From Escherichia phage Ec_Makalu_002: 64,000 nucleotides of DNA. The notes under the pieces are model-generated. The model saw only the letters and a program-made list of their open reading frames with translations. It made no database searches and was not told the DNA's origin. Position 1 is the stretch's first letter. The number at the start of each line of letters is the position of its first letter. The stretch is from the sequence record MN709127.1; one strand, 5' to 3'. Below are positions 7,304 to 48,761 of this stretch, one piece after another. Made by a program: the position numbers and the translations under genes.

Positions 7304-7312
7304 AGAAGGTAT

Positions 7313-8846: not shown

Positions 8847-8856
8847 TATATAATCC

Positions 8857-9650: not shown

Positions 9651-9664
9651 AAATTCACCTCACA

Positions 9665-9973: not shown

Positions 9974-10044
9974 AATATAATCCTCACATCGTTCATTTGA
10001 TGCGGCTATTATAGGATAACCGCATTTTCATGTCAACTGTTTTT

Positions 10045-10642: not shown

Positions 10643-10649
10643 TTTGATT

Positions 10650-10715
10650 CTCCTTAAGAAAGTGTGTTTCGTTTTGATGTGTGTAGTATAGGGGATCGGC
10701 GATCCCCTGTCAACA
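10650..10715 (-). promoter_or_regulatory. sigma70-like early promoter with GATC palindrome in spacer, plus conserved leader
   Basis: Reverse complement: TTGACA-ggggatcgccgatcccct-ATACTA ... catcaaaacgaaacacac ... GGAGAATCAAA-ATG. Confidence 0.55.
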
Positions 10716-10729
10716 ACTTTTTTATGATT

Positions 10730-29020: not shown

Positions 29021-29677
29021 TTAAAGGTTCGCGAGAATCGCGCTTTCAAATTCTTCTAATGTACCATTATTTATGATAATGGTTTCACCGTCAATAGGCA
29101 AAATTCCTTTTTCGGTGGAGTGAGTCGATACAATACCAGTATCACGCTGAATATGCAACACCTTAGCACCCATAGTACGCATGAGAGCAATTTCAATAGG
29201 CTGACGCACATCAACTACTACAAAATACCCTTCTTCATTTTTGCGCTTCATAAACTCATTCACGAAGAGATTACACCAATAAAGCGGATTAATCAAGTTA
29301 ACCATTATGTCAGTACCGAGAGTGGTTAACATGAGACGGATAGACCAGACGTTATTATGTTTTTCTCCGATCTCATTAACGACCTTGTAAATCTCAGCCA
29401 GACGGTCACATGTAAAGGAACTACCACCATACTTAGAATCTAGCATAAGCAGACACTGAATAAACCACTTATGCGCGGTGTAGGTATCAATACCTAGATC
29501 GGCTTCTCTGTCACGCCCTAACCCGTCAAAGTCAAGATAAGTCAGACCTAAGTCTGGTTGACATTCGCATAAGATTTCTTTGATCGGTGCTGCCAGCTGA
29601 TAACTGTGTCCATCAATGATTAACGCGGCAGTGTCTTTTCCTACGCGTTTTTTACCACAAAGTGCAATCAATTTCAT
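29021..29677 (-). CDS. 1: deoxynucleoside monophosphate kinase
   Basis: 218 aa; MKLIALCGKKRVGKDT P-loop N-terminus like T4 gp1. Confidence 0.85.
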   Translation of the reverse strand: MKLIALCGKKRVGKDTAALIIDGHSYQLAAPIKEILCECQPDLGLTYLDFDGLGRDREADLGIDTYTAHKWFIQCLLMLDSKYGGSSFTCDRLAEIYKVVNEIGEKHNNVWSIRLMLTTLGTDIMVNLINPLYWCNLFVNEFMKRKNEEGYFVVVDVRQPIEIALMRTMGAKVLHIQRDTGIVSTHSTEKGILPIDGETIIINNGTLEEFESAILANL

Positions 29678-29692
29678 AATATAAGCCTCTTG

Positions 29693-30283
29693 TTACTTTC
29701 TAAAAGCAGGGTGCATAGCTTTAATTCCTTCCACTCGCTGACGATCCGCCGCCTGAATTGCTGGGCGAGGAACGATCAGTTGACCATCACGTTCAATGCT
29801 CATTGTTTTAAATGGAAGAATTGCAGTACACACCAGAGATTCATGCATATCATCGGTGTATGTTAACTCAAGTTCCCCCAATTGTGAACACCAACAACCA
29901 TAAAAGTTAAAGGTGCATACAATGTTACGGCGTTCATTGTCCATCATGTGAACTTGAACGGCTTCCGGCATTGAATCCTTCCACGCGGTGGAGTTACCGT
30001 TATTGTAGTCTACTATAGAAAGCATCCATGTGTAAAGGTTTAGATAGCTTTCCAAATGCTCATCGACAATAAACCGGACTACCAGCGGGTCAAACTCTAC
30101 ATGACTGGAAGGATAATCAGCGACCGCCAAACCATATTGACCAGCAACTTGCTTAGTCGGTGGAATGGTTATAGCCGGAAGTGTAACACCTTGAGCATTT
30201 AAAGTAAAGCCTTTTGTTAGTTGACCATCTGGAATACTGATCTGCCAGTTACTAGGGTTAGCATAGTTAAAGAGATTAGACAT
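29693..30283 (-). CDS. 3: tail completion / sheath stabilizer protein (gp3-like)
   Basis: 196 aa; synteny between gene 1 and gene 2 as in T4; called mainly on position. Confidence 0.5.
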   Translation of the reverse strand: MSNLFNYANPSNWQISIPDGQLTKGFTLNAQGVTLPAITIPPTKQVAGQYGLAVADYPSSHVEFDPLVVRFIVDEHLESYLNLYTWMLSIVDYNNGNSTAWKDSMPEAVQVHMMDNERRNIVCTFNFYGCWCSQLGELELTYTDDMHESLVCTAILPFKTMSIERDGQLIVPRPAIQAADRQRVEGIKAMHPAFRK

Positions 30284-30472
30284 TACTGATTCCTCAAATG
30301 AAAATATTTATTAACAATTGTCGCTTTGCGACGTGCCGTAGGCACTGACTACTTTTTAACCGAAACAAATTTTTATTATTCTAAAGATCTTTCTTCGTTT
30401 TGGTTATGTTTTAACCAATAACTATATTTTTATACAGTAATAAATAAAACGGGTACTATACGAGGACTTCTT

Positions 30473-30727
30473 ATGACAGAAGACATTTTGTTAAAACTCT
30501 ATGATCGTTTGGATAACGAATTAGCAACATTGCGGGGTGAAGTTCTCTATTTGTCTAAATGTAATACAGATCTGCTTAAGCAGATTGCAGAAAGGGATGA
30601 CCAAATAAAATCCCTTTCAGGTGCATTACGTGACCGCGACAAGGCATTAGAGATTTTACAGCGTGTTACCAATAAGGAAGAATTAAAAGACTTCTTACAT
30701 GGTTATGCTCATGCTATCGATCTATAA
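30473..30727 (+). CDS. hypothetical coiled-coil protein on opposite strand
   Basis: 84 aa; GAGGA RBS 8 nt upstream; sits in an otherwise non-coding gap between genes 3 and 2. Confidence 0.4.
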   Translation: MTEDILLKLYDRLDNELATLRGEVLYLSKCNTDLLKQIAERDDQIKSLSGALRDRDKALEILQRVTNKEELKDFLHGYAHAIDL

Positions 30728-33811: not shown

Positions 33812-35611
33812 ATGCTAATGTTTAATAACTCCGTTAAATGGTTTACCGGAATTGTGGAAAATAGGGAAGACCCGTTAATGTTAGGCCGAGTTCAGGTCAG
33901 GATTCATGGTATACATCCTTCGCTATCCGCACACGGTGACATTCAAGGTCTTCCAACCGAAGATCTATTATGGATTACGCCAGTGCAGGATATTACTAGC
34001 GCGGCGATATCAGGTATCGGACAAAGCCCTACTGGTATTGTTGAAGGTTCAATGGTATTTGGTTTGGCCTTAGATGAACGTTATTTAAACTGCGTTATTC
34101 TGGGTACTATTGCCGGACAATATACAGAGAAACCACTCACTACAGAAGGTTTTTGCGACCCTTCTGGTGCATACCCGCGCTATATTGGTAATGATGTTAA
34201 TATTCTTGCCCGTGGCGGCATTAACCCAGAAACCGGACAAACAACAAAACCTGATAGTGTCTATATTCGAGATGAAAACACTGGAGTTGCAGTAAATCCA
34301 GACGACGAGCCATTAGATCAAATTCCGGTTGATGATAATCCTGATTTTACAATAGAAAAAATGCTGCGGGGCGATGAGGGATATCGCGAGAAATGGTATC
34401 TTGATTCAGAAGGATATCCGACAATAGGCATCGGGCATTTGATCATTTATAAGAAAACCAGTGATCTGGGTATTATCAATAATGAACTTTCTAAGCTGGT
34501 AGGGCGTGAAGTTACAAACGGAAGACTTACCGCCGAAGAAGTTAGCAAAGTATTTGCTGACGATATAGAAAAAACTCGTCGTGATATGCGCAAACATCCA
34601 CGAATTGCACCTGTCTATAATAAATGTAATGCTTCTCGTCGTATGGCATTAGAAAATATGGCGTTTCAAATGGGTGTTGGTGGATTGGGTAAATTTAAGA
34701 ATAGTCTTGCTGCAATGCTGGCGGAAGAATGGAAACAAGCCTATGATGGATTACGTCAATCAGTATGGGCTAATCAAACTCCGGGACGCTCCAGCCGTGT
34801 TTCTAAAATTATTCTTACTGGCAACTTAGAATCCTATGGCGTAATTGCTCCTAAGAAAGAGGAATCTGTTTCCGATGATCCGCGAGCACGTTTGAGAAAT
34901 GCCCGTATTGCTGCCTATAAGACGCAGAGAGCAGAAGAAGACCCAGAAGCACCGTTTACCCCACAAGACACACGAATCATGTTTAAAGAGCCTAAGAGTT
35001 CGTATTCTGCAAGATATCCATATAACCACGTATACGAATCAGAGAGCGGTCATATTATCGAGATTGATGATACTCCTTCTCATGAGCGGTATCATCGTAA
35101 ACATCCTTCTGGTACATTTGAAGAAACCAGACCGGACGGAACGAGGGTAGAAAAGATTGAAGGTGATGATTATTTGATCGTTAAGCAAGGCCGCAAAGTC
35201 AACGTTAAAGGCAATCTGCAAGTTGTTGTTGAAGGTGACGCGCAAGTTTATTATATGGGTAATGTGATGCAAACCGTTGATGGTAACGTCACTGAATTTA
35301 TTCGTGGTAATGTTAATCAGACAGTTGAAGGTACAGCTAATATGCATGTTGTCGGTGATGTTACCGCGCAACTTGACGCTAATTTGACGGCTAACGTCAA
35401 GGGCAATGCTGAATTAATGATCGAGGGTAACACTACCGAGACAATTAAAGGTAACTATGATTTAACCGTTGAAGGTAATTTTAATATGACCGTCAATGGT
35501 ACTAAATCAGATCAGGTTAATGGTGACTGGTCCCGTAATTGTGGTGCAAGCGTTAAAGATATTGCATCCGGTACAGTTAAAATTGATGGTAGCCGTATTG
35601 ATCTTGGGTGA
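33812..35611 (+). CDS. 5: baseplate hub / tail-associated lysozyme gp5
   Basis: 599 aa; lysozyme core DSEGYPTIGIGHLI; C-terminal VxGxxxxx beta-helix repeats. Confidence 0.9.
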   Translation: MLMFNNSVKWFTGIVENREDPLMLGRVQVRIHGIHPSLSAHGDIQGLPTEDLLWITPVQDITSAAISGIGQSPTGIVEGSMVFGLALDERYLNCVILGTIAGQYTEKPLTTEGFCDPSGAYPRYIGNDVNILARGGINPETGQTTKPDSVYIRDENTGVAVNPDDEPLDQIPVDDNPDFTIEKMLRGDEGYREKWYLDSEGYPTIGIGHLIIYKKTSDLGIINNELSKLVGREVTNGRLTAEEVSKVFADDIEKTRRDMRKHPRIAPVYNKCNASRRMALENMAFQMGVGGLGKFKNSLAAMLAEEWKQAYDGLRQSVWANQTPGRSSRVSKIILTGNLESYGVIAPKKEESVSDDPRARLRNARIAAYKTQRAEEDPEAPFTPQDTRIMFKEPKSSYSARYPYNHVYESESGHIIEIDDTPSHERYHRKHPSGTFEETRPDGTRVEKIEGDDYLIVKQGRKVNVKGNLQVVVEGDAQVYYMGNVMQTVDGNVTEFIRGNVNQTVEGTANMHVVGDVTAQLDANLTANVKGNAELMIEGNTTETIKGNYDLTVEGNFNMTVNGTKSDQVNGDWSRNCGASVKDIASGTVKIDGSRIDLG

Positions 35612-35616
35612 GGTAA

Positions 35617-36186
35617 TTGATGGTTGAAATTCTTCCTATGAGTTCAAAATTGGAGGATATCAGCGAGCGAGAAATCTTTGAGGTGGTGTTCTCTTATAAA
35701 GCAACGCCACCGGATGCAAATACCACATACACGATTAAAGAGTTTAAGATCAGCGAGTATCGCCCTAATAAGGGCGTTACCGTTGAAGAAACTAAAATAT
35801 CTGGTGAGTATCGGGATAGTTTTTCGCTTGGCGCGGATTCTCTTAAATATATAACGAAAGATCGAATTAAAAAATCTGCCGGAAGTTTTGATGATTTACC
35901 AGATCCAACTACAGCAGATCTATATTATTTTAACGCTCCTACACGTCTACAGGAGGTTTATACTTATAAAGTAACCCTAACCTATATCCAATCTGTTTCA
36001 GAGTCTTCTGGCGGTTCCGGTGAAGGAAATAGTGGTGGTTCTAACAGTCGAGAGGGTGCTGGTGAAACTAATCCGCCTCCGGTAGTAACCGAGCACACAA
36101 TAGAGAAAGTTTATACTCAAACCGTTTTTGGAAATTGGGATGTGTGGAGTAAACAGTTAAGAGATTATGTACATAGGGGTGTTTAA
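35617..36186 (+). CDS. 5.1: gp5.1-like hypothetical protein
   Basis: 189 aa; synteny between gene 5 and 5.4. Confidence 0.45.
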
Positions 36187-36479
36187 TGGCTGGATTATCC
36201 TACGATAAAGCTAAAACTACAGGGCACGGAAACTACCCACCTACGGTAATTAATGCAACTCAATCTAAGGTATTTGTTGAGGGTATCCCTGTATTAGTCG
36301 AAGGAGACCCAATTACACCACATACAAAAACAACAAAACCTTATGATACACACGGGGGAACTACGGTCGCCAGTACCCCGAAAGTATTTGTTACCGGAAA
36401 GAAAGCAATTCAAATGGCAGATCGTATTAGCTGTGGCGATACCGTCGCTATGGCATCACCGAAGGTATTCATAAAATGA
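36186..36479 (+). CDS. 5.4: PAAR-repeat baseplate spike tip protein gp5.4
   Basis: 97 aa, same length as T4 gp5.4; PAAR-like Gly/Thr/Val-rich sequence. Confidence 0.7.
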
Positions 36480-38380
36480 CAAAGCAAAAGATTACACAAA
36501 TTCCTGATATTTTTAATGCTGCTACATTCGATGAAATTAAAAGCGCATTAACCGACTGGATGAGAAACCAGGAAGAATTTAAAGATTTTGATTTTAATGG
36601 TGCTGGTATTAACGTATTGATGGACTTGCTCGCATATAACACTCTGTATATTCAGCAATTCGCCAACGCCGCGCTATATGAATCTTTTATCAGAACGGCA
36701 ATTAAGCGTAGTTCAGTTGTTCAAGCCGCGCAAGATTTAGGATATTTGCCAGCGAGTAAAACTAGTGCATCGACTACAATTATGTTGCATGTTTCCCATC
36801 CACGAAATCCGGCAAGTATTCGAATCCCACGAGGGACTAAATTTATTGCAAGTGTGGATCGCCAGACTTCTTACCCATTTGTTACTACAGAAGACGTTGT
36901 GAGCGTTTTAGGTTCAAATGGTTTATATACGCCTATGCTTAAAGTCGCACAAGGTCGTATTGTTCGTACAGAAATGTTATTTGATCCGAAGAAACAAATT
37001 CTGATCCGTGACCCTGATATTGACCGCGCTCAGGTTAAATTGTGGGTGGACGGTGCTGAATGGAAAGACTGGACACGAGAAAGTATTGTTAATGCAACTG
37101 GCGCAAGCAATATTTTCTATATGCGTGAAACCGTAGACGGACATACAGAAATTTTCTTTGGTGAAGGTGAATCAACCTTATCTGCGGCTGGCGGGGCGCT
37201 GGAAGCAAATTATATTGGTGGACTTAAGCCGTCAACTGGCGCTAATATTGTTATCGAATATATCAGCACTAAGGGCGCGGAAGCAAACGGTTCAGTTAAT
37301 TTCACATACGCGGATACCCTTGCATCTATCTCTATTGTTAAAATTATTGAGAATCCGACAAATGATCGTGATTATGTCGGTGCAGATGGTGGTGGTGATC
37401 CTGAATCAATCGAACGTATCCGTGAACTTGCTCCGGTAATGCGTGAATCTCAGCGTCGTTGTGTAACTGCTTCCGACTACGAGGCTTTTGTTTCTAGCCG
37501 TTTTGGTAGTATTGTTCAGGCTGTACAATGTTTCACCGACCGAGAAAAACCGGGTTATGCTTTTGTTGCTGTTAAGCCTAAATCTGGCTTGCGTTTGACA
37601 ACTGTTCAAAAAGAAGATATGCGGGATTATCTGGCAAAATATAACCTTGCCCCTATCACACCGAGCATCATTGACCCTAACTATCTGTATATTAAACAGA
37701 ATATTAAAGTTTCCTATTCAATCAATGACTTGTCAGAATCAGAGCAGTGGTTGCGCGGTGCGGTTATTGATCAGATTGATGCATATTATACCGACGAAGT
37801 GGAAATTTTTAACCAGACCTTTAGTAAGTCTAAAATGCTTGCGCGTATTGACAAAGCTGATGTATCTGTGATAGGTTCTAGTGCAGAAATCGAGATGGTG
37901 CGAGAGATCGACAACTTCTATAAAGCACCGATGGCTGGAATCAAGTTTTTAAACCAGTATAAGAGCGGAATCAAGTCTAGTTCATTCAACTTCGAAAAGG
38001 ACGACAAGCAATATCCGATCCATTATGTAAGTACAGAAATGAACAAAGAATCCGGTTTAGCTAAATTGCTGGTTGGACCTTTCCCTGTTGGTTCTGCAAT
38101 CGCTTTACCGCACTATTCCGGCACTGATTTTGATAAAGAGGTTATCGACGGTGCGGACCTATACTTTGAGGTTGGAGAGGTTCAGCATTATGACGACCTT
38201 ATTTCATGGGATCTGGGTAAACTGAATATCAATAGCGATCGCTTTACTGGTTCATATATTGAGTTGACAGCTAAACCGATTGCTGATAACATCTTTACTA
38301 AAGACGGTTCTTTGATCGTGTTTGAAAACGATCTCCGTCCTCAGTACACAACTATTAGTCTGGAGGCAATTGCTCAATGA
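36476..38380 (+). CDS. 6: baseplate wedge protein gp6
   Basis: 634 aa; size and synteny. Confidence 0.8.
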
Positions 38381-41300
38381 TTAAAGCGCCTAGTGTAACT
38401 AGCTTGACAATAGAAAAATTGTCTGCTAATCAGGCGTATATCACATGGGATGACGTAGGCGAAAACTTCTTTTATTTTGTGGAGTTAGCCGAAACCAGAA
38501 CACGAGACGGGGAGATCATCCCCGTCGATGAGTTAAGCTGGGTAAACCTGGGATATACTGCCGAACAAAACTGGTTTGAGGATAAAAGCCTTTTTCCAGA
38601 ATATTATTACAAGTTTCGTGTAGCAGTAGCCGCAGAAGGATTTGAACAAAGTAAATGGGTTGAGACAGAAGAGTTTCAGACATTTAAAACAAACGCATAT
38701 AATTTTTCTATGATGCGAGAGTTCAACCTTGCAAACGAGTTTATAAAGGAAAAATTTACATACGATAATAGAGAGTATGTCAAGTTTAATACTGACCTGA
38801 TTCAAGCATCATTGATGAAGGAAGATTTTGTCTTTAGTCCTGAATATGCAAACATGACAAATATCTCAAACTACATTGTAGTTGATGAGAACTTTCATGA
38901 AATACAGGATCACATAGAAAAAGTTTGTATTGATATAAACCGCACTATGTTAGCGGAAATGAACGGTGTTTTGTACCTTTTCGAACGGTTCCAGCCGATC
39001 GTGAAAGTGTCAAATGATAAAGGTCAATCATGGAAAGCATACAAGGCTTTTAATGACCGTGTAGGCAATCCGGTTTCCCGTACATGCGTTTATCAGTCTA
39101 AAACCACTACTTACGTTTTAGGATATGATCGAATCTTTTACGGACGACAAGCGAGCGATACTCGATGGAGCGCGGACGATGTTCGATTTAGTGATGACAC
39201 GATCACTTTTGCAAAGGTTGGTGACGAGAACGATTTAGGCTTTGACGTTGAGGTCTTTGGTGTATTTTCCAGATTAACAGGGGACACCACAAAATACGCC
39301 GAAGCTATGGCGTGCAGTGATGACTATTTGTGGGTTGGTGCTAAAGATGTTATTCGCCGGATTCGTCTTAAGAATACTCCAGTTGATACCGTACAGGGTT
39401 CGCCTACGTTTGGCGAAAAAATATTCGATCCTGATGTTATCCGAGTAACAGGAAATGATAAAGCTGTCATTCAGAAAATGGATGTGATCGACGGTAAATT
39501 GCTTGTATTTGTTACTGGTGAAGTTAAACAGCGTTATCAAGATCCAACTAAACCAGAAAACGTTGTTCCGTCAGATGATGCGGGTGTATACTTAATAGGG
39601 AGTGATGGTCTGTCTTTTCAGAGAGTATTTGGCAACACTCCGCAGGAAAGGGAATATATTCAGCACGGGTTCAGTAATATGTCAACCAATGGTGATGAGG
39701 TGTTCATAAGCCATTATAATCATCACTTCGAAAGCATTTTACCTGATCCAGAAACTGCCGCAAAATATGAATTAGGCGAAGCTGTGAAATATTCTCAGGA
39801 GCCAACTTATCTAACTGATAAGAAAATACATCAAACTACTTTCAGAGCAAGTTATGATGATTTGCGTATTTGGGAGTTAGGACCGCAAGCGTATTATAAT
39901 GAGGCTGATTATACATGGATGCGTCGAAACGGTGTCCGTGTGTGGATCACAAATGATAATCGCCCGTTGGTTGTTTATCCAGAGGTTATCTATACTCAAG
40001 AAGTTGATACATCTGGCATTCTTGACCAAAACAGGGTTAACCGAGAGGTTTATGATAAGGGGACAGTGACCTGTTATCTTAACAATGTTAAATTTGAAGG
40101 GTTCAAACAATATGCATCCGGTGTAATGTTCCATAAAAACACGGGAGAGATCATTGGATTCTATCAATTTAATTATCGTGTTCGTGACCAAGTTGGTGTA
40201 TATTGGAAACCTACAAATGTAGCATTTGTTGCTGAATTACAAAATCAGGTTCGAGAGGTTCCCTGGGTTCCTGTTCATTATGACAGAGAGCAAGACCCAG
40301 ATTTACGGCCTTTACTGAATAAGATGACCCCGGATAGCTTTTTGCTTGAGAACGAAAATTTCAGAAAATTCTCTGAATATTATCTGCAATTCTTAAGTGA
40401 TGGTTCAGGAACATATTATAATAAACTAAAAAATCTGATTAAAAACAAATACCCACGCGAGCAAGATGCATATGAGTATCTTTGGCCAGAGATGAACAAA
40501 CGAAACATCTATGCAGATAAAAACAAGCGAGATGCGGTAGTAAGATTCTTCGAATCCCGCAAATCAGATTTTTATTCCACTAAGGGCGTGGAGGCTTCTT
40601 ATAAGTTCTTGTTTAAGTTACTTTATAATGAAGATGTGGAAATTGAGGTTGAATCGCAAGCCGGACTAGAGTATGATATTGTTGTTAGTTCAACGAACAT
40701 TGACGAGGATATCGTAGGTCGCACGATCTATACTCCAACCGGACGGGCTAACGTGACGTATCTTGAAAGGGAATATGAAGGTGGTCGCCTACGCTGGCGA
40801 GTAACCATTCATAACCTGATCGGGCGGTTCGAAGAAGGTCAAGTGATCAAATCAGAGAAAACAGCGTTTGAAGGGATGATCCTTGTTGGTGTACGTGGTA
40901 AAGAGTTGTTGAGTAGTTCAATCGACTATATCAACCGCTCACGAAGCCAATACACCATGAAGATTAAAAGTGCATTACCAGTTTCGCGCTATGCAAATGA
41001 TGTAATGCGATTCGTTCATCCTGTCGGCTTTGGGTTTATCGGTGTTACCCTGCTTACGATGTTCATTAACAGCGGGTTGAGCATGAAGCACACCGAGACT
41101 ATAATTCAATCTCTGAAAAATTATAAGTTTGACAGCGGATTGCCTAGCGTGTATCCTGATCGGGTGGCAGACCTTGACGTTGACGGAAACATTAAGAAAG
41201 ACCCGCTTACCGGAAAAGCATTATATTTGACTTCACCTTTAATCGGTGAAGAATTTCCGGTTCCTCCTGAATATGATCAGGAGAACAGCGAATTGTTCCA

Positions 41301-41463
41301 CGGACTTAAAGCAAGCGAACGAAGATTTGCAATGAGTCCACTGTTTGACCAGTCGGCGGTATCATTCTCTATGTTCCGTGAACTTGTAGATAAACGGTTG
41401 AAGGATAATATAGGGAATCCACGCGATCCGAAGAATCCGACACAGAGGAAAATTAATGGCTAA
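38377..41463 (+). CDS. 7: baseplate wedge initiator gp7
   Basis: 1028 aa (T4 gp7 ~1032); synteny. Confidence 0.85.
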   Translation: MIKAPSVTSLTIEKLSANQAYITWDDVGENFFYFVELAETRTRDGEIIPVDELSWVNLGYTAEQNWFEDKSLFPEYYYKFRVAVAAEGFEQSKWVETEEFQTFKTNAYNFSMMREFNLANEFIKEKFTYDNREYVKFNTDLIQASLMKEDFVFSPEYANMTNISNYIVVDENFHEIQDHIEKVCIDINRTMLAEMNGVLYLFERFQPIVKVSNDKGQSWKAYKAFNDRVGNPVSRTCVYQSKTTTYVLGYDRIFYGRQASDTRWSADDVRFSDDTITFAKVGDENDLGFDVEVFGVFSRLTGDTTKYAEAMACSDDYLWVGAKDVIRRIRLKNTPVDTVQGSPTFGEKIFDPDVIRVTGNDKAVIQKMDVIDGKLLVFVTGEVKQRYQDPTKPENVVPSDDAGVYLIGSDGLSFQRVFGNTPQEREYIQHGFSNMSTNGDEVFISHYNHHFESILPDPETAAKYELGEAVKYSQEPTYLTDKKIHQTTFRASYDDLRIWELGPQAYYNEADYTWMRRNGVRVWITNDNRPLVVYPEVIYTQEVDTSGILDQNRVNREVYDKGTVTCYLNNVKFEGFKQYASGVMFHKNTGEIIGFYQFNYRVRDQVGVYWKPTNVAFVAELQNQVREVPWVPVHYDREQDPDLRPLLNKMTPDSFLLENENFRKFSEYYLQFLSDGSGTYYNKLKNLIKNKYPREQDAYEYLWPEMNKRNIYADKNKRDAVVRFFESRKSDFYSTKGVEASYKFLFKLLYNEDVEIEVESQAGLEYDIVVSSTNIDEDIVGRTIYTPTGRANVTYLEREYEGGRLRWRVTIHNLIGRFEEGQVIKSEKTAFEGMILVGVRGKELLSSSIDYINRSRSQYTMKIKSALPVSRYANDVMRFVHPVGFGFIGVTLLTMFINSGLSMKHTETIIQSLKNYKFDSGLPSVYPDRVADLDVDGNIKKDPLTGKALYLTSPLIGEEFPVPPEYDQENSELFHGLKASERRFAMSPLFDQSAVSFSMFRELVDKRLKDNIGNPRDPKNPTQRKING

Positions 41464-42451
41464 TGAAAATAGTGTGATCTATCGCTCAATCATTACTAGT
41501 AAATTCAGAACGGAAAAACTTCTGAATTTCTATAATTCTGTAGGCGATGGGGCAAATCAAATTACAATTTATGGAACGTTTGGACGTTCGGAGCCGTGGT
41601 CAGAAAACGAAAAAGAGGTGGGCTTTGCCCCACCTTATCCGACCGATTCAACGGCTGGTGTTGTTGACATGTGGACCCATATGATGGGGGCGGTTAAGAT
41701 TAATAAATCACTTCTTGATGCGGTTATCCCTCGTAAAGATTGGGGTGATACCGGACAGGATAACCCGCGCACATTCTTTATCAATGACATTGTTGTTGTC
41801 AACTCAGCACCATATAACCGAACTGATGTTGGTAGCGGCTGGATGGTGTATCGCGTAACCGATGTTCCTGATCGCGGTTACTGCTCGATTTCAAGCATTG
41901 ACGCTAAAGTCGAGTGTTTGAAGTTGGGCGGAAAGTGGACACCTACTCATGAATCAATCGCGCCACCTGTAGGAAAGGGCGATTCTATTGATATGGGTGA
42001 TGGGTATCGTTGGGAATATCTGTACACAATTCCACCTGATGCGGCGATCAACCGTTGCACCAATGAACATATTGTTGTACCGTTCCCCGATGAACTGCGA
42101 CAAGATCCGGCGCGCTGGGGCTACGACAATGTGATCACATGGTATAATGACTATAATCTGCTTTATCGGCTGAAAGTAGTAACTTTGCGTTTTCAGGCTT
42201 ATATGGACTCTGCGCAATTCCCAACTACCGCGTTAGTGGGTAACACTGGTTTCCGTCAGTTAAGCATTATCCTTAACCCATTGGAAAAGAAAGCACGCCC
42301 TAGCGATCCAGACGTTAAAGCGGTTCAAGATAAGTACCGTCCGCAAGACTTAGAGCCACACTCAGGAGAAATGATCTACATGGAAAACCGACAACCTATC
42401 GTTCGGTCATTAGATCAAACAGAACTTGTTTCTGTACTGTTTGAGTTCTAA
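41456..42451 (+). CDS. 8: baseplate wedge protein gp8
   Basis: 331 aa (T4 ~334); synteny. Confidence 0.8.
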   Translation: MANENSVIYRSIITSKFRTEKLLNFYNSVGDGANQITIYGTFGRSEPWSENEKEVGFAPPYPTDSTAGVVDMWTHMMGAVKINKSLLDAVIPRKDWGDTGQDNPRTFFINDIVVVNSAPYNRTDVGSGWMVYRVTDVPDRGYCSISSIDAKVECLKLGGKWTPTHESIAPPVGKGDSIDMGDGYRWEYLYTIPPDAAINRCTNEHIVVPFPDELRQDPARWGYDNVITWYNDYNLLYRLKVVTLRFQAYMDSAQFPTTALVGNTGFRQLSIILNPLEKKARPSDPDVKAVQDKYRPQDLEPHSGEMIYMENRQPIVRSLDQTELVSVLFEF

Positions 42452-42463
42452 GTGTATGATTTA

Positions 42464-42497
42464 AAAGCCAATTCGAGAGAGTTGGCTTTTTCTATTT
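42464..42497 (+). terminator. rho-independent terminator after gene 8
   Basis: Hairpin agccaa-uucgagagag-uuggcu followed by UUUUUCUAUUUU. Confidence 0.6.
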
Positions 42498-42503
42498 TGG
42501 GTG

Positions 42504-42531
42504 TTGACAATCTTGTCTGATAAGGTATAAT
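42504..42531 (+). promoter_or_regulatory. sigma70-like promoter (TTGACA-N16-TATAAT) driving the inserted three-gene island
   Basis: gTTGACAatcttgtctgataaggTATAATg, then RBS GGAGG and ATG at 42561. Confidence 0.6.
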
Positions 42532-42560
42532 GCTCACATCTAAACAACGGAGGATAAATT

Positions 42561-42818
42561 ATGGCACGTCGTAAATTTACAGATAATTGTGAAGCAATTC
42601 AGGTATCCCCTTGCGGTTGGGATGTGATCGCGAACGGTGAAAAGATCGGAGAGATCATCGATCATACTCATTCATCACTAGCCGATTACACCGATGAACT
42701 ATGGGAGGGTATCAACTTCATGAATGACACTAAACGATTCAAGACTATCGACGAAGCTATCTATTTTGTGTATAATCCAACTTTCGGTATGTGGACTGAT
42801 AGAAAATGGCACGCGTAA
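42561..42818 (+). CDS. hypothetical protein (island gene 1)
   Basis: 85 aa; starts MAR; stop overlaps next start. Confidence 0.5.
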   Translation: MARRKFTDNCEAIQVSPCGWDVIANGEKIGEIIDHTHSSLADYTDELWEGINFMNDTKRFKTIDEAIYFVYNPTFGMWTDRKWHA

Positions 42819-43135
42819 ATATTAAACGGCATTATACAATGGGTAAACCAAAACATCCAATGCATAAAGTGTTTTGGGGCTTACATCTTCAAGAAAAATG
42901 GCATGATAACTATTGGTTTTGTGACCATGATAAGAAGTGGCATTCTCAAGATGAAGTTAATGCGATGATGGAACAGGGTATAAAGTTTAATTACTCTAAT
43001 TATGACCATAGCATTACTTGTATTCGAAAAATGAAACGGTTTATTCGAAAGAATCCACAATTTAAAAACTTTGTGTTCTTTATGTCTCATGTTTATTTGG
43101 GGCATAGCGTTACCGTAACAGCAAAGGTTAAATAA
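42806..43135 (+). CDS. hypothetical protein (island gene 2), His/Trp-rich
   Basis: 109 aa; starts MAR; translationally coupled to flanking genes. Confidence 0.5.
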   Translation: MARVNIKRHYTMGKPKHPMHKVFWGLHLQEKWHDNYWFCDHDKKWHSQDEVNAMMEQGIKFNYSNYDHSITCIRKMKRFIRKNPQFKNFVFFMSHVYLGHSVTVTAKVK

Positions 43136-43974
43136 TGGCACGACTTTCCAAACAAGAACAAAAATTACACGATCGGGCAATGGAGCTAATCAATTCAGAC
43201 CGCCCATTGACATATGAAGAAAAGGAGTTTTGCTATAATAACTATCATGGAGATGGTCTAGGTGGTTCCGGTGCATTCTTTACCCCAGAGGGGCTTGCGT
43301 GGGATTTTACCATTGACGCACACTGCACCGGAAAAGTATTAGATTTGTGTGCTGGGATCGGTCGCTTATCTTTCTGTATGTTACATCGATGCAGACCAGA
43401 AAAGATCGTATGCGTCGAACTCAATCCAGAATTTTCGCGGATTGGCAAGCGACTATTACCGGAGGCAGAATGGATCACCAGCGATATATTCGAATTTGAG
43501 TCAAACGAAAAATTCGATGTGGTGATCAGCAATCCACCTTTCGGTAAAATCAATACAACCGACACAAAGGATGTATTTGAATACACAGGCGGCGAATTTG
43601 AATTTAAGGTTATGACGTTAGGCCAGAAGTTTTCCGATGTAGGTTATTTTATTGTTCCTTCTGGTTCCGCTGGGTTTGCGTATTCTGGTAGACCTTATTA
43701 TGATGGATCAGTGAAGTCTAATAAATATCTAAAGTGGAGCAAACAAACTGGTCTTGTGACTTATGCCGGATGTGGGATCGATACATCAATTTATCGCGAT
43801 GAATGGCACTGCACCAACGTTTTAACAGAAGTGGTTGAGGTTCGGTATTACGAGAAAGAAGCCGTAGAAGCGCCTAAATCGCGTCCTAACGAACAAATAG
43901 AAGAAAGTAAGGAGATTACCTTACCAGAACAGGAAAGCGAGTCTGGTACGCTCTCAGACTTGTTTGACATTTAA
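43135..43974 (+). CDS. SAM-dependent methyltransferase with NPPF motif (putative N6-adenine or N-methyl transferase)
   Basis: 279 aa; motif I VLDLCAGIGRLS and motif IV VISNPPFGK. Confidence 0.7.
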   Translation: MARLSKQEQKLHDRAMELINSDRPLTYEEKEFCYNNYHGDGLGGSGAFFTPEGLAWDFTIDAHCTGKVLDLCAGIGRLSFCMLHRCRPEKIVCVELNPEFSRIGKRLLPEAEWITSDIFEFESNEKFDVVISNPPFGKINTTDTKDVFEYTGGEFEFKVMTLGQKFSDVGYFIVPSGSAGFAYSGRPYYDGSVKSNKYLKWSKQTGLVTYAGCGIDTSIYRDEWHCTNVLTEVVEVRYYEKEAVEAPKSRPNEQIEESKEITLPEQESESGTLSDLFDI

Positions 43975-43976
43975 TT

Positions 43977-44006
43977 AAAAGCCGTCCTTGTGGGCGGCTT
44001 TTTTGT
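43977..44006 (+). terminator. rho-independent terminator closing the island
   Basis: Hairpin agccguc-cuugug-ggcggcu followed by UUUUUUG. Confidence 0.6.
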
Positions 44007-44014
44007 ATGTATTT

Positions 44015-44022
44015 TATAAATA
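44015..44022 (+). promoter_or_regulatory. T4-type late promoter (TATAAATA) for gene 9
   Basis: TATAAATA ~28 nt upstream of the gene 9 ATG. Confidence 0.55.
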
Positions 44023-44049
44023 ATACATCATAACATGAGGAATTAAACA

Positions 44050-44904
44050 ATGGCACAAGTTCCAAAGAAAAGAATAGACACAGGTACTGTCGGCAATCCA
44101 TCGACTGGCGATATCTTATATGATGGCGGTAATAAAATTAACGATAACTTTGATTCAATATATGACGCATTTGCTGATCAGCGGTTTAAAGACGTAGACC
44201 ACGGCGTGGGAAGAATGGTTATTCATGCAACCGGATACTATCAGAAACATCCACGTCAAAGCTACGCTGGTTCCGCTGTTGAGATTGGGAGTCTACACGA
44301 TATCGATACAACTCAAGGCGCACTTATTGCTATTCTACCTAAAGCAAAGGTCGGCGAGGGTGTTGTATTCATAAATAGTAACGGTAGCCTTTCAACGACT
44401 ACACCGCTCAATATTCGAACTCAAGCAGGTGATTCTATTAGCGGGTATTCCGGTGATGCTACAATAACACAACCATTTTCAAAAGTCACTGTTTGGTGTA
44501 CTGCCGTTGAAGGTAGTCGCGTAACGTGGCGATTGGGTATCGAAAGTATGTTTACCGATACAACAACGCCATTGGATAAAACAGTTAACGTAACTGGAGT
44601 AGCAACAAACGTTGCTATTGCCGCAAAAACAGAATACGTTTCCATCAAATTATTAACTACCGCTAGCAATACATCCGGTTCAAAAATGCGTTCAAGTGAA
44701 ACGCTACTGATGATTGATTCTAAAGCCGGAAAAGTTTATGCGACGGAATATGCAGTTTTGCAGAAGACAGAAGATGAACTATACACGGTTCGTTATTTCA
44801 TCGGTTCCGGCGATAAAGTATATGCAGAGTATAAGGCTACTGGCGAAAATATTCGTTTAGCAGTTAAAGCCGTAGACACTATTAAAATCGGGGTTGCTAC
44901 ATGA
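44050..44904 (+). CDS. 9: baseplate wedge / long tail fiber socket protein gp9
   Basis: 284 aa (T4 288); synteny. Confidence 0.8.
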   Translation: MAQVPKKRIDTGTVGNPSTGDILYDGGNKINDNFDSIYDAFADQRFKDVDHGVGRMVIHATGYYQKHPRQSYAGSAVEIGSLHDIDTTQGALIAILPKAKVGEGVVFINSNGSLSTTTPLNIRTQAGDSISGYSGDATITQPFSKVTVWCTAVEGSRVTWRLGIESMFTDTTTPLDKTVNVTGVATNVAIAAKTEYVSIKLLTTASNTSGSKMRSSETLLMIDSKAGKVYATEYAVLQKTEDELYTVRYFIGSGDKVYAEYKATGENIRLAVKAVDTIKIGVAT

Positions 44905-46703
44905 AACAATTAATTAATATCGGTAACGTTGTTGATGACGGTACAGGTGATTATCTAAGAAAAGGTGGTCAAAAGATTAATGACAACTTTTCTGAACTTT
45001 ATACTAAGCTGGGGGATGGTGATATCCCTCATGCATCCGGCGCGTGGAAAACTCACACACAACCAGTATTAAAACCAAATTTTGGTGATGCATGGGCGAT
45101 TAATACAACGAACAACGCTGTTTCTGTTGAATTGCCTAAAGGAAGCGCGAGTGATTATAATAAAACAATTAAACTTCGTGATGTTTGGCGCTCATGGGCT
45201 GCACATAACGTAACGTTGAAGCCAGCACAAGGTGATACCATTAAGGGATCTCCAATCGACCGTGAGTTGTATAAAGATTTCATGGATGTTGAATTGGTTT
45301 ATTGTGCGCCTGGACGTTGGGAATATGTCGAAAATAAACGAGTAGATACTATCACCACTTCCGATTTAAGCACAGTTGCCAAAGAAGTTTATATTGCAAC
45401 CGAAGGACAAACAGACTTCCCTAATGTTTTTGGTTCCAATACTTACAATATTCGAAATGTTGAAGTGTATTATCGCGGTAACTTGCTTTATTATGGCAAG
45501 GATTTAACCGATGATTCTAACTATGGTTCAATCGGTGAAAACGGTGATATTGTTCCGCTGGACGGTAAAAGCATTAAATTACGCTTCCCTTGTTCGGCTG
45601 GTGATACCATTCAAATCATAACTTATATGGACGGTATCGCATCCTTCCGGTCAAGCTATATTACTCATACAATCCGCGTTTATGAAACAGGAATGACCAC
45701 TTTGGAATCCATCCCCGGTGAAGTTTGGGTTGGTGAACTAGCTAATAAGAAAGAATTTACTAATGCTGAATTAGGTGTAAGTAAGCGAGATCTTATTAAT
45801 CCAAATTCATTTGAATTGCTGATCAACGGCACACAAATGATTAAAGCGGGTGATGCGGATTTACCTTCCTTTATTTGTGAAGGCGCTGACGGTGAAACGG
45901 AAGAAACCTGCGTACTTGCTGGCGGTCAATGGGTGGAATCTGGGGAAGATTATTCATTGATGTTCGACGAAAACAGCGTGGTGACTGGTATTAAATTATC
46001 TAAAGCACTAGATAACCGAGATACTATCACAATTCGCTGGTTTAATAATGATATCGGAACATTAATGGAATGGGACGGTGTAGGCGGTATTAAAGAAAAA
46101 GCAGATAAAATCTATCTTAATAACGAAGATGAAGTTACTCTGACAAATCGAATTGAATATACCGATTTCCAAAATCCAAGCCAAGCAACTAAACGCCCAA
46201 TGGAAGATTATACAGGTCGTGTGATGGATATCTATTCCATATTCGATATTTTCTATCCTATAGGCACAATTTATGAAAATGCGCATAACCCAGCTAACCC
46301 AGCGACCTATATGGGATTTGGTACATGGGTACGTTATGCAGAAAAAGAATTTTTAGTTGGTTGGTCTTCTGACGCAAGCGATCAAAACTTCGCACTAAAC
46401 AACAACGATCTTGATACACATGGTCAACCTACACACACCGCAGGTGGTAACGGTGGTGATGTTGCATACCAGATCAAGAAAAATATGATTCCTGAATTAC
46501 AGAGCGACGTTCGAGTTCTTGTAAAAGATGATAACGGAAATATTATCATTGGTGGTTGTCAGGTAGACCCTGATGCAGTAGGTCCAGCGTTTACCAAATA
46601 TCGAGAAGATAATGTTAAAGTTAATCAGGGAAATACCGACCCATCAATGATTGGTATTCTTCCTCCATACAGAACTGTCTATCGTTGGCTAAGGGTAGGT
46701 TAA
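44901..46703 (+). CDS. 10: baseplate wedge protein gp10
   Basis: 600 aa (T4 602); synteny. Confidence 0.8.
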   Translation: MKQLINIGNVVDDGTGDYLRKGGQKINDNFSELYTKLGDGDIPHASGAWKTHTQPVLKPNFGDAWAINTTNNAVSVELPKGSASDYNKTIKLRDVWRSWAAHNVTLKPAQGDTIKGSPIDRELYKDFMDVELVYCAPGRWEYVENKRVDTITTSDLSTVAKEVYIATEGQTDFPNVFGSNTYNIRNVEVYYRGNLLYYGKDLTDDSNYGSIGENGDIVPLDGKSIKLRFPCSAGDTIQIITYMDGIASFRSSYITHTIRVYETGMTTLESIPGEVWVGELANKKEFTNAELGVSKRDLINPNSFELLINGTQMIKAGDADLPSFICEGADGETEETCVLAGGQWVESGEDYSLMFDENSVVTGIKLSKALDNRDTITIRWFNNDIGTLMEWDGVGGIKEKADKIYLNNEDEVTLTNRIEYTDFQNPSQATKRPMEDYTGRVMDIYSIFDIFYPIGTIYENAHNPANPATYMGFGTWVRYAEKEFLVGWSSDASDQNFALNNNDLDTHGQPTHTAGGNGGDVAYQIKKNMIPELQSDVRVLVKDDNGNIIIGGCQVDPDAVGPAFTKYREDNVKVNQGNTDPSMIGILPPYRTVYRWLRVG

Positions 46704-46704
46704 T

Positions 46705-47349
46705 ATGATTTCGAAAACACGTTCAAAAGCTAGTGTATTTTCCAGCGATGCGGCGTTTATTTCATACGATCCAGGATCGAAAGATCCTGTTATCGGTGGT
46801 TCTCGTCCAATTGGTGGCGTTAATGTCGATCAATCAAGAAAAGGTTCCTATGTAAGCAACGTTCAATCTGCAATTGATGACCTTTATTCATTGTCAATGA
46901 TCCGAATTGGTGATGTGTTGGTTACAACCAACTCAACTCCACCACAAGCCGCAGGACAGATTGAAACTCTGTCATTTTCTGGTTCTGTTAACAATCAGCA
47001 TAATCCAGACGCAAACAAAGTATTAATTGATGTTTTGGGTTATCCATTTATTGTTGATGTTGGTTCTTCCGGCGTTTCTCTATGTGAGAAAGTAACGGAA
47101 AAATTTACCGAACTAATGAATAAAAACATTATGTTCAAAGAAGTAAAAAGAAAAGGAAGTAGCAACGACCAATTAGAAATTCATTATATCGATTCTCTTG
47201 AACACCCACCAACCGATATTAACAAGTACGGAATTACAATCACAGGAAATGTTGATTCCCCTTCCCGTGTTGGTTATGGTTCATGGTCTCGCATGGGTAC
47301 AGAAGAGAAATTTGGAACTACCCTATATTATTTCAAACGTATTGCATAA
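46705..47349 (+). CDS. 11: baseplate wedge protein gp11
   Basis: 214 aa (T4 219); synteny. Confidence 0.75.
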   Translation: MISKTRSKASVFSSDAAFISYDPGSKDPVIGGSRPIGGVNVDQSRKGSYVSNVQSAIDDLYSLSMIRIGDVLVTTNSTPPQAAGQIETLSFSGSVNNQHNPDANKVLIDVLGYPFIVDVGSSGVSLCEKVTEKFTELMNKNIMFKEVKRKGSSNDQLEIHYIDSLEHPPTDINKYGITITGNVDSPSRVGYGSWSRMGTEEKFGTTLYYFKRIA

Positions 47350-47360: not shown

Positions 47361-48761
47361 ATGTCAAACAATACTATTAACCATGTAAAAGACGATGCTC
47401 AATACGTCAAGTTTAACCCTGTAAATGATTGGCCTCAAAGCATTACCAACGTACAAGCGGCTTTAGCCGCTATTAATGGCTTTGCCGTAAATGGATTACC
47501 GGACGCTACGGAAGATACAGCCGGGATCGCTGCAATCGCAACTCAGGAAGAAGTAAACGACGGGGTAGTAGACAATAAGATCGTGACTCCAAAAACACTG
47601 GCTGTTAAAATGTCACGTCCAGATGCTACAAAAGAAGTAAAAGGCATTACCCGATTTGCCACAATGGAAGAATCGCTGCAAGAGAGCAACGAGAACATGG
47701 CAATCGGTCCAGACACACTAAACCATTACTTCACCACTAAAAAGGCGTCAGAGAGCGTTCAGGGGACTATTAAGATATGTTCTCTTGAGGCGGCAAAGAT
47801 TGGCAGTGATGACACAATGGCAGTAACACCGAAAAAGATGCACACTGCCATTGCACAGATTGTACCGGGATTAATTCCAGATCAAAACACAGCAACCGAA
47901 AGCGCACAGGGTTTAGTTCAGTTAGCAACCAGTGCGCAGGTTTTACAAGGCCAGATTCGAGAAGGTTTTGCAATTAGTCCTTATGCATTTGCAAATGCTC
48001 GCGCCAATGAGAATCAGGCGGGTACTGTTAAGATCGCCAGTCAGTCACAGATGAATGCTGGTTCAGATGATACTGTAGTTGTTTCTGCTAAGAAGTTTGC
48101 AAGCACTAAGGCAACAACGTCTCAATACGGTATTGTTAAACTACGAGACACCGTAGGAAGTGAGGCTAATGCTGCACTATCAGCAAATGCTAAGGTTCTT
48201 CCTAGCACTGGCGGTACGGTAAGCGGAAACGTCTATAAAGGTTCAAACTCAGACGGCAACCAGTTTGTTACTAAAAATGAATTAGCGAATCACGCAATGC
48301 CAATTGGTGGTATTATCCTTTCTGGATTCAATGCCGACCGAGGTGACTTTCTGATCTGTAATGGTCGTTCACTGAATAAAAATCAATATCCGCAATTATT
48401 TTCTGCGATTGGTTATACCTTTGGTGGTTCAGGTGACAATTTTAACATTCCTGATATGCGCGGTTTAGTTGCTCGTGGTTGCGATCATGGAAGAAACCTT
48501 GATCCAGGTCGTCGATTTGGTTCTTATCAAGAAGACGCAATGCAGAGAATTACTGGTAAATTCCCTGTAGCTGACCGCTGGCGCGGTTGGTATGGTGGCG
48601 CATTTACTGCACAGCGCGGTCAATGGAGCACGAACTATAAAAATGGTGGGGGTGATGATTGGGGTTCTACTGTTAACTTTGACTCAGGAAGATCCGTAAG
48701 AACGGCTAACGAGACTCGCGTCAAGAGTCTGGCATTAAACTATATCATAAGGGTGCGCTAA
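47361..48761 (+). CDS. 12: short tail fiber protein gp12
   Basis: 466 aa; Gly/Thr/Ala-rich repetitive fibre sequence; synteny. Confidence 0.75.
   Translation: MSNNTINHVKDDAQYVKFNPVNDWPQSITNVQAALAAINGFAVNGLPDATEDTAGIAAIATQEEVNDGVVDNKIVTPKTLAVKMSRPDATKEVKGITRFATMEESLQESNENMAIGPDTLNHYFTTKKASESVQGTIKICSLEAAKIGSDDTMAVTPKKMHTAIAQIVPGLIPDQNTATESAQGLVQLATSAQVLQGQIREGFAISPYAFANARANENQAGTVKIASQSQMNAGSDDTVVVSAKKFASTKATTSQYGIVKLRDTVGSEANAALSANAKVLPSTGGTVSGNVYKGSNSDGNQFVTKNELANHAMPIGGIILSGFNADRGDFLICNGRSLNKNQYPQLFSAIGYTFGGSGDNFNIPDMRGLVARGCDHGRNLDPGRRFGSYQEDAMQRITGKFPVADRWRGWYGGAFTAQRGQWSTNYKNGGGDDWGSTVNFDSGRSVRTANETRVKSLALNYIIRVR

Follow-up and report, generated by a model that had tools for sequence, protein, structure and literature searches.

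PeSLs, which combine a strong sigma70-like promoter with a stem-loop terminator, number about 50 per genome in the T4-like phages RB49 and phi1. They are found mostly in hyperplastic regions, with a few in the virion module beside genes of unknown function, and they mediate modular shuffling and block early transcription from entering the late virion genes (PMC2839356). The sliding clamp gp45 of these phages is contacted by the C-termini of gp43, gp55, and gp33, which are similar, hydrophobic and acidic, and interchangeable as epitopes. A variable flexible linker precedes the gp45 epitope in gp55, and the C-terminal 11-mer of the RB69 polymerase has been co-crystallised on the RB69 clamp (PMC2988020). 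For the bacterial beta clamp, QLSLF is an established binding motif, as in Hda (PMC7049699). The locus compared with these systems in this paper lies in a stretch of 64,000 nucleotides from Escherichia phage Ec_Makalu_002 (record MN709127.1), called the window here, which belongs to Krischvirus (RB49-like, Straboviridae). An island of three genes stands there between the baseplate genes 8 and 9, and its last gene encodes a methyltransferase with a C-terminus very similar to that of gp43. Sequence comparison makes it rather probable that the island is an early module carrying a replication-clamp-tethered orphan methyltransferase of the gamma-type N6-adenine class, and that the two smaller genes, ORF1 and ORF2, are separate from it. 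The parts of the methyltransferase gene are as follows.

43135..43974, plus strand: methyltransferase gene, 279 amino acids (RB49 ORF143)
43135..43848, plus strand: catalytic core, residues 1-238, with FFTP at 48-51, LCAGIG at 71-76, E95, and NPPF at 133-136
43849..43947, plus strand: acidic low-complexity linker, residues 239-271, predicted to be disordered (pLDDT 49-63)
43948..43971, plus strand: C-terminal octapeptide TLSDLFDI, a putative gp45 sliding-clamp-binding epitope by its likeness to the gp43 end

The methyltransferase ends in GTLSDLFDI directly before the stop codon, and gp43 of RB49 ends in ASLTDLFDI, which aligns with the C-terminus of the RB69 polymerase, ASLFDMFDF. The C-terminus of RB49 gp55 is SLDQFYEIEN. 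When about 96 kb (the window and positions 1-32 kb of RB49) were scanned with a regular expression, gp43, gp55, and the methyltransferase were the only real genes found to end in this manner; the gp45 gene itself lies outside the 64-kb window. The tail is invariant in 5 Krischvirus sequences, and the linker differs among them by a few substitutions. Across homologs the linker is variable in both length and sequence, and it is absent in prophage versions. Three uncultured relatives, with gp8 80-89% and the methyltransferase 62-68% identical to those of the window, have methyltransferases ending in TLTDLFDI, SLSMFDI, and TLDFVDFSEI. Like the gp45 epitopes of gp43, gp55, and gp33 in the T4 family, the octapeptide is found at the extreme C-terminus, is hydrophobic and acidic, and follows a variable flexible linker, and it is near-identical to that of the cognate gp43; unlike those epitopes, the putative one of the island sits on a methyltransferase. 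These similarities suggest that TLSDLFDI binds gp45. No methyltransferase is named among gp45 ligands in the literature searched, and nothing relevant on clamp-binding methyltransferases was found there, an absence that is not proof of novelty. This C-terminus, the feature most telling on mechanism, went unnoticed in a first-pass annotation of the window.

The assignment of the enzyme to the gamma-type N6-adenine amino-methyltransferases is well supported by its motifs and by its modelled fold. Motif I reads VLDLCAGIG (residues 68-76), in which L71, C72, A73, G74, I75, and G76 are invariant in 30 homologs, as are E95 and the NPPF of motif IV (133-136). The gamma order X-I-II-III-IV is followed from FFTP (48-51) through motif I (71-76), E95 at the end of strand 2, and D117 to NPPF at 133. 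Pfam families MTS (36.5, cut-off 23) and Eco57I (28.3, cut-off 25.3) score above their thresholds, and PADLOC matched mad2 (E 8e-16) together with type II methyltransferase models. The AF2 model (pLDDT 84.8) displays a compact Rossmann core reaching to about residue 238, in which only short inserts follow motif IV. This Rossmann-like fold matches solved N6-adenine enzymes, and the longest structural alignments are those to DNA adenine methyltransferases. When a close solved relative was sought in PDB sequences, the single-sequence search gave only E-values of about 1e-3 and the profile search an E-value no better than 2e-3, so that none of the solved structures counts as a near relative. Compared to Phi1, the gene has a ratio of non-synonymous to synonymous substitution rates (dN/dS) of 0.05 at a synonymous divergence (dS) of 0.32, representing strong purifying selection.

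The first-pass annotation had read the last ORF as an amino-methyltransferase present in addition to a Dam at 7603-8415, from motif I VLDLCAGIGRLS (residues 68-79) and NPPF. Both motifs are there, with G-x-G and NPPF invariant in the 30 homologs, and this reading is borne out by the two Pfam families and by the fold. The Dam ORF also exists, on the minus strand and with 270 amino acids, and its counterpart in Ec_Makalu_003 is annotated as Dam. Enzymes of the T4 Dam type belong to a different motif-order class and have a DNA-recognition region of their own. The island enzyme resembles the Dam of the window in that it is phage-encoded, has no cognate nuclease, and is presumed to protect phage DNA from restriction. 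In contrast to that Dam, which ends in EVYVTNVD and has no clamp-type tail, the island enzyme is tailed; its motif order is X-I-IV, and it has no separate recognition domain.

No separate target-recognition domain was seen in the methyltransferase model, and no HsdS-like neighbour in any homolog context inspected. Similarly, no restriction nuclease domain was found beside the methyltransferase, either in the window (gp8, ORF1, ORF2, and gp9) or in any homolog context inspected. Since no cognate endonuclease is adjacent, the methyltransferase is regarded as an orphan. The structural neighbours are the HsdM/lmo1582-type gamma-class DNA N6-adenine methyltransferases and the METTL5/PH1948 RNA N6-methyladenine (m6A) methyltransferases, from which the island enzyme differs by an identity of only 14-24% and by having no evident HsdS partner, target-recognition domain, or TRMT112-type partner. 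DNA is the probable substrate and m6A the probable product.

An RNA or protein methyltransferase for host takeover (METTL5-, RsmC-, or PrmC-like), with rRNA, tRNA, or a translation factor as its target, would also be compatible with the result that Foldseek returned generic class I methyltransferases, a fold which alone, like the sequence scores, does not separate DNA from RNA substrates. This alternative is nevertheless unlikely. The NCBIfam equivalog cut-offs were missed by far for PrmC (35.6 vs 199.1), PrmB (27.3 vs 229.7), and RsmC (27 vs 295), whereas the DNA methyltransferase models of PADLOC gave the better match and the longest structural alignments lead to DNA enzymes. Furthermore, an enzyme acting on RNA or protein would have little use for a clamp-binding-type tail fitted to the replicating clamp, and members of the family are found in replication clusters and beside relaxases.

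According to the clamp-tether reading, the hairpin of a PeSL would halt read-through from gene 8 and the sigma70 promoter would drive early transcription, while a second terminator would insulate gene 9, which would retain its own late promoter. The methyltransferase would be the long-standing cargo, composed of the 238-residue core, a disordered acidic linker of roughly 33 residues, and TLSDLFDI. Through its tail the enzyme would attach to gp45 that has been loaded onto phage DNA in replication, and adenines of nascent DNA would be methylated as replication proceeds. Docking on the clamp may compensate for weak intrinsic DNA binding or the lacking recognition domain, and progeny genomes may be modified fast enough to escape host restriction. 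ORF1 and ORF2 would be a two-gene mobile module that landed between the promoter and the methyltransferase, which does not need them. An anti-restriction function is proposed as plausible.

The usual explanation of how orphan methyltransferases of phages and plasmids modify whole genomes ahead of restriction is high expression only. If the proposed mechanism is true, a clamp-binding tail would be a concrete alternative by which the replication clamp delivers the enzyme to nascent DNA, and the methyltransferase would join the short list of gp45 ligands. DNMT1-PCNA is the nearest concept found in the literature searched, where neither a clamp-type tail on a phage methyltransferase nor beta-clamp motifs in plasmid or integrative and conjugative element (ICE) homologs were met. 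As proposed for the island, a DNA methyltransferase there has a short clamp-binding motif and methylation is aimed at newly replicated DNA (PMC9690074). However, DNMT1 is a large eukaryotic C5-cytosine maintenance enzyme, whereas the island enzyme is a viral orphan of 279 amino acids and of N6-adenine type, probably acting de novo for restriction evasion. The likeness is a functional analogy, and the tethering parts are not homologous.

The DNA that encodes the tail allows a further explanation. The 3' end of the methyltransferase gene has the same 15 nucleotides as the end of gene 43 (TTGTTTGACATTTAA), and both are followed by a hairpin. The gp43-like tail could be a non-functional by-product of PeSL recombination, in which TTT GAC ATT merely carries a -35 box and the 3' end of gene 43 was picked up by chance; the F-D-I codons of gp43 do hold the -35 box of a perfect promoter, and gene 43 is bordered by PeSLs, which drive recombination in these phages. 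Several findings render this explanation improbable. Upstream of the -35 box, the residues match through different codons (9/15 nucleotides). TTGACA has been lost yet the peptide pattern kept in two uncultured relatives, one of which ends in GACTTTTCCGAAATATGA and the other, the one that carries a 154-amino-acid ORF, in TTCGACATT. The tail is invariant while linker and core vary, and throughout the family acidic linkers again lead to a hydrophobic end, there with another clamp motif. Because of the different upstream codons, the two relatives without TTGACA, and the recurring design, it is concluded that the tail is probably kept by selection on the peptide. Recombination may explain its acquisition, for which PeSL-mediated exchange is a plausible route, but not its retention. 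The simpler idea that the tail was copied recently from the DNA at the end of gene 43 was rejected as a full explanation, as the likeness is confined to the last 6 codons and the peptide persists in relatives that do not have TTGACA.

In RB49 itself, the codons TTT GAC ATT (F-D-I) at the 3' end of gene 43 (15776-15803 of the RB49 piece) include the -35 element of a PeSL promoter that matches TTGACA-N16-TATAAT perfectly and has a hairpin behind it. The same DNA here encodes a clamp epitope and forms part of a mobile promoter element. Additionally, possible further gp45 ligands can be seen in RB49 by a phi-x-D-[I/V] C-terminus, the type that gp43 and the methyltransferase also have, namely the DNA ligase gp30 (KEVFDV), the DprA-like RB49p164 (DLSWLDI), and gp33 (TNTLDI), located within the 95-145 kb stretch of RB49 at 29127-30623, 1848-2435, and 47696-47965, respectively.

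The methyltransferase family is distributed far beyond Krischvirus. By tblastn it was detected in 291 phage records, including Slopekvirus, Pseudotevenvirus-type phages of Klebsiella, Enterobacter, Cronobacter, and Citrobacter, T4-like phages of Aeromonas, some jumbo phages, and Sinorhizobium phages. Within the early replication cluster of KP27, Xman, and POP12, the gene stands between helicase 41 and primase 61, and this position holds in Slopekvirus, Pseudotevenvirus, and POP12. The nearest relatives of the Krischvirus core (54-61%) are proteins of 236-242 amino acids at the edges of enterobacterial prophages or islands. An exhaustive search gave 725 clusters at 50% identity, 178 of them at E below 1e-30.

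Tails were surveyed in 130 representatives with a placeable core end, and an extension was counted from at least 12 amino acids. Such extensions are present in 81 of the 130, with a median of 26 amino acids and fewer order-promoting residues than the core. A Q-phi-x-phi-[FLM] motif (QLSLF, QLALF, QLTLF, QLDLF, etc.) occurs in the last 12 residues of 25 of these 81 tails and is exactly C-terminal in 11; since the representatives are mutually related, the counts describe motif conservation on a variable linker and not independent events. Shuffled tails contained a mean of 0.4 and a maximum of 3 such motifs, and real tails exceed internal windows about 190-fold. [LIMV]F was found in the last 10 residues of 46 of the 81 tails against 5.2 +/- 2.2 expected. 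The beta clamp is bound through QL[S/D]LF by bacterial proteins of replication and repair (Hda, PMC7049699) and through such a motif by MuC of phage Mu (bioRxiv 10.1101/2025.01.04.631326). Many homologs of the methyltransferase end in the same way after a disordered linker, and binding to the beta clamp is predicted for them; the protein of the window differs in having the gp45/gp43-type motif.

Genomic context was readable for four members with the beta-type motif: a bacterial island that also holds ParB and an Xre-RES pair, a neighbourhood of ParA/ParB and a relaxase, a position immediately upstream of NikA/relaxase, and a position near an SSB gene. The member adjoining NikA/relaxase belongs to an integrative element with other orphan methyltransferases. 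These neighbourhoods resemble the anti-defence gene clusters in the leading regions of conjugative plasmids. The contexts at 152-8864 and 1-10836 of two homolog contigs are plasmid- or ICE-like, and plasmid- and ICE-like elements of this kind replicate with the host clamp. In a small neighbour-joining tree, which is indicative only, the Krischvirus clade is joined by the prophage proteins that have no tail, the Slopekvirus clade stands elsewhere, and the beta-type members are basal, suggesting that tails were gained separately in two phage clades. The chances are about even that the whole represents a widespread mobile-element family of orphan DNA adenine methyltransferases tethered to the sliding clamp by an exchangeable C-terminal motif that is matched to the clamp of the element. 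The motif would be of QLxLF type for the beta clamp on plasmids and integrative elements and gp43-like for gp45 in T4-like phages, where it would have been gained separately in two clades, and foreign DNA would be methylated co-replicatively ahead of restriction. If this is true, it would be a prokaryotic and viral counterpart of DNMT1-PCNA, of which the literature searched gave no description, and mobile genes would be seen to adapt to new replication machinery by swapping short motifs. A simple sequence rule is also suggested for recognising replication-coupled modification enzymes in the genomes of mobile elements.

A number of observations weigh against clamp tethering or against parts of it. 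The weakest link is found in the second phage clade, where the tails of Slopekvirus, Pseudotevenvirus, and POP12 differ (LFTFxIE: DLFTFTIE, NLFTFTIE, MEFTFKIE) and, being hydrophobic and acidic, are only loosely like their own gp43 (SLNDLFGDW), gp33 (TLDGFM), and gp55 (TLEDFL). No extension of at least 12 amino acids exists in 49 of the 130 representatives (about 38%), and the versions of Aeromonas phages and enterobacterial prophages are tail-less, indicating that the enzyme can do without it. As their carriers are related, the 25 tails with the motif do not count as independent events. In the window, the match to gp43 spans only 8 residues, and with TTGACA in the last codons of both genes and gene 43 flanked by PeSLs, recombination could have made it. 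Regarding the enzyme, Pfam N6_Mtase remains below its cut-off (16.3 vs 20.4), and the depositors of RB49 compared the product of ORF143 with an rRNA guanine-N2 methyltransferase. Early expression is deduced from the promoter sequence alone.

The regulatory frame in which the methyltransferase gene stands, with the remaining genes of the island and its flanks, is the following.

41456..42451, plus strand: gene 8 (baseplate wedge subunit), the upstream flank (PF09215, E 2e-143)
42463..42490, plus strand: stem-loop terminator 3' of gene 8 (12-pair stem followed by a T-run), which forms one half of a PeSL
42504..42531, plus strand: consensus sigma70 promoter TTGACA-N16-TATAAT, the promoter half of the PeSL (12/12 match)
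42549..42554, plus strand: ribosome-binding site GGAGGA, upstream of the ORF1 ATG at 42561
42561..42818, plus strand: ORF1, 85 amino acids, acidic (RB49 ORF140/141; phrog_16603)
42806..43135, plus strand: ORF2, 109 amino acids, basic, rich in His and Trp (RB49 ORF142; phrog_12630)
43977..44002, plus strand: terminator at the 3' end of the island (11-pair stem with 6 GC pairs, T-run)
44015..44022, plus strand: TATAAATA late promoter of gene 9, the sole TATAAATA in 38000-47000
44050..44904, plus strand: gene 9 (baseplate wedge tail-fibre connector), the downstream flank (PF07880, E 1e-40)

ORF2 begins 13 nucleotides before the end of ORF1, the methyltransferase ATG overlaps the ORF2 stop by 1 nucleotide, and MAR is the N-terminus of all three island proteins. 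No 12/12 match other than the promoter at 42504-42531 exists in the 4.5 kb scanned, and it is the sole perfect sigma70 promoter on the plus strand of the window; five are found on the minus strand, which is the early-gene strand. Promoter-like sites overall are not enriched in the island stretch (11 found vs 11.7 expected), and only the perfect match stands out. With a hairpin, a sigma70 promoter, GGAGGA, and a non-core gene in succession, the 5' edge of the island is by its sequence a PeSL, the promoter/terminator cassette known to be mobile in these phages, in the subclass having the stem-loop upstream of the -35 box. Early expression of the island is predicted from its promoter. Promoter and terminator activity has been tested for other PeSLs of RB49 and phi1, the island's own not being among them, and searches of the main text of that study gave no mention of the island locus, the methyltransferase, or the gene 8-9 junction (PMC2839356). 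The two terminators that bracket the island (42463-42490 and 43977-44002) have common outer parts, AAAAGCC...GGCTTTTT, and the equivalent hairpins of relatives do likewise.

The existence of the island is ordinary and its regulatory frame is known. In RB49 it is annotated as ORF140w-143w, with a note on ORF143 that gives the likeness to the rRNA enzyme; it is annotated also in Phi1 and in GEC-3S, whose record already includes the promoter (-35 and -10 signals) and both terminators. Other records name the enzyme 'DNA methyltransferase', 'putative methyltransferase', or 'release factor glutamine methyltransferase'. The island was found in 57 of the 57 records covering the query, and all cultured Krischvirus genomes carry it. 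Over the island stretch, the window is 99.8% identical to Ec_Makalu_003, from which it differs by several indels outside the stretch, and 95-98% identical to GEC-3S, RB49, Phi1, and JSE.

Genes 8 and 9 follow each other directly, with 9-67 nucleotides between them, in T6, a Tulanevirus, Yersinia phage MHG19, and a Slopekvirus-like phage. Because the two genes are adjacent in these four other T4-like genera, the island is considered a lineage-specific insertion. The three uncultured relatives have the order gene 8, hairpin, sigma70 promoter, methyltransferase, hairpin, TATAAATA, and gene 9. Their hairpin after gene 8, AAAGCC...GGCTTTTT, is at the equivalent place in 3 of 3, their promoters (TTGACA or TTGACT with N16-17) are at the same place, an equivalent of the closing hairpin was found, and the TATAAATA of gene 9 is conserved in position. 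Both flanking proteins are 100% identical in amino acids to those of Phi1, at a dS of 0.066 for gp8 and 0.025 for gp9. The dS of the methyltransferase is 5-13 times that of these baseplate genes; therefore, the history of the module differs from that of its flanks. Like the PeSL-bounded ORFan modules of RB49 and phi1 (PMC2839356; PMC4122927), the island of this same genus has a stem-loop and then a sigma70 early promoter before non-core genes. Its age and its constant position in a clade that extends beyond the cultured genus set it apart from a recent variant of a hyperplastic region.

The first-pass annotation had described all of these elements, from the terminator after gene 8 through the sigma70 promoter, the three ORFs, and the second terminator to the late promoter of gene 9, and each was found where it had been placed. 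Its view of a self-contained early-type module inserted into a late baseplate cluster agrees with the absence of the island from the junction in the four other genera. It had also considered that related phages might carry the ORFs universally as structural genes; they are universal in cultured Krischvirus, but they are not structural.

In the same annotation, the three genes were seen as a cassette acquired as a unit, with ORF1 and ORF2 as two accessory proteins. Under that explanation the cassette would serve anti-restriction or takeover, and ORF1 and ORF2 would be accessory subunits of the methyltransferase, for example for specificity or regulation. One promoter and one terminator are common to the ORFs, start and stop codons overlap, the trio is conserved in all cultured Krischvirus genomes, and a partner is conceivable for a methyltransferase without its own recognition domain. 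Nevertheless, the unit falls apart on both sides. Two uncultured relatives carry the methyltransferase at the gene 8-9 junction without ORF1 and ORF2, and the third has the unrelated 154-amino-acid ORF (positions 3673-4137 of its contig) between PeSL promoter and methyltransferase, with no Pfam match on record. This slot seems to accept different cargo. Conversely, ORF1 and ORF2 are an adjacent overlapping pair, with 67-69% amino acid identity, in rV5-like Vequintavirus coliphages that have no methyltransferase. Homologs of the methyltransferase in other T4-like phages, prophages, and plasmids also have no ORF1 or ORF2 as neighbours.

An accessory role is likewise contradicted by the variation within Krischvirus. 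In RB49, ORF1 is frameshifted by an 11-nucleotide deletion (window 42708; 1662-1908 of the RB49 piece with this locus) and split into ORF140w and ORF141w; either ORF1 is dispensable or the RB49 record contains a sequencing error. ORF2 exists as two Krischvirus alleles, with 95-99% and about 71% amino acid identity, the second being found in many Krischvirus genomes while the methyltransferase stays 95-97% identical. Nucleotide identity to Phi1 falls to 62-75% across 42800-43040 (ORF2), compared to 99-100% in gp8 and gp9, and by this profile the ORF2 stretch is a sharply bounded allelic replacement inside the island. Acquisition of three cooperating genes as a cassette is accordingly highly improbable, and on the sequence comparisons ORF1 and ORF2 are a separate, mobile, and dispensable pair and not part of a three-gene unit.

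Little further can be said of the pair. Krischvirus and rV5-like coliphages are the only groups in which ORF1 was found. Neither ORF1 nor ORF2 matched a family of Pfam, NCBIfam, or PADLOC, and PHROGs gave only families of unknown function. Among the clusters of 5.8 billion proteins, five contain ORF2 and one contains ORF1, all from coliphages. The AF2 model of ORF2, from an alignment of 5 sequences, is too poor for a fold search (pLDDT 53, pTM 0.37). With a dS of 0.79 and a dN/dS of 0.21 against Phi1, the divergence of ORF2 and its allelic replacement are compatible with an arms-race role, which is speculation. Regulatory DNA common to the rV5-like phages was considered and rejected, as the homology between the window and HMD-6 begins at the ribosome-binding site of ORF1 and the promoters are unrelated.

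The least probable of the alternatives is that the tail binds the clamp for regulation and not for targeting, competing with gp43, gp33, and gp55 for gp45 and modulating replication or late transcription with methylation secondary: although the tail is near-identical to the gp43 epitope, gp45 sites are limited and common to replication and late-transcription ligands (PMC2988020), and a phage protein with a clamp-binding motif, MuC, can perturb clamp-dependent processes (bioRxiv 10.1101/2025.01.04.631326), the invariant catalytic motifs and the strong purifying selection on the core indicate that catalysis matters, and the same tail logic is seen in homologs from plasmids and ICEs, for which competing with the replisome of the host would come at a cost.

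A clamp-tethered adenine methyltransferase would also have practical meaning, as Krischvirus phages are used in phage-therapy collections. A second and possibly broad-specificity adenine methylation could affect the host range of Krischvirus on restricting strains and the sensitivity to methylation-dependent defences. Nothing relevant on Krischvirus adenine methylation was found in the literature searched. For cytosine, an unexplained difference in modification has been described between the Krischvirus phages SAP and TB34, which are 99.96% identical (PMC13390438, 2026). RB49 also has a third methyltransferase-like gene, RB49p189 (20891-21607 within the 95-145 kb stretch), which encodes 238 amino acids with a FAFPPC motif and is unrelated to the island enzyme.

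Another difference was observed upstream in the baseplate cluster. In Ec_Makalu_003, a gene for an HNH endonuclease is located between the ORF downstream of gp5 and a PAAR-size ORF, and it is without a counterpart in the window (35617-36479 vs 35060-36479), where the order is gp5 (33812-35611), an ORF of 189 amino acids, an ORF of 97 amino acids, and gp6. A probable homing endonuclease is thus polymorphic in presence and absence between the window and Ec_Makalu_003.

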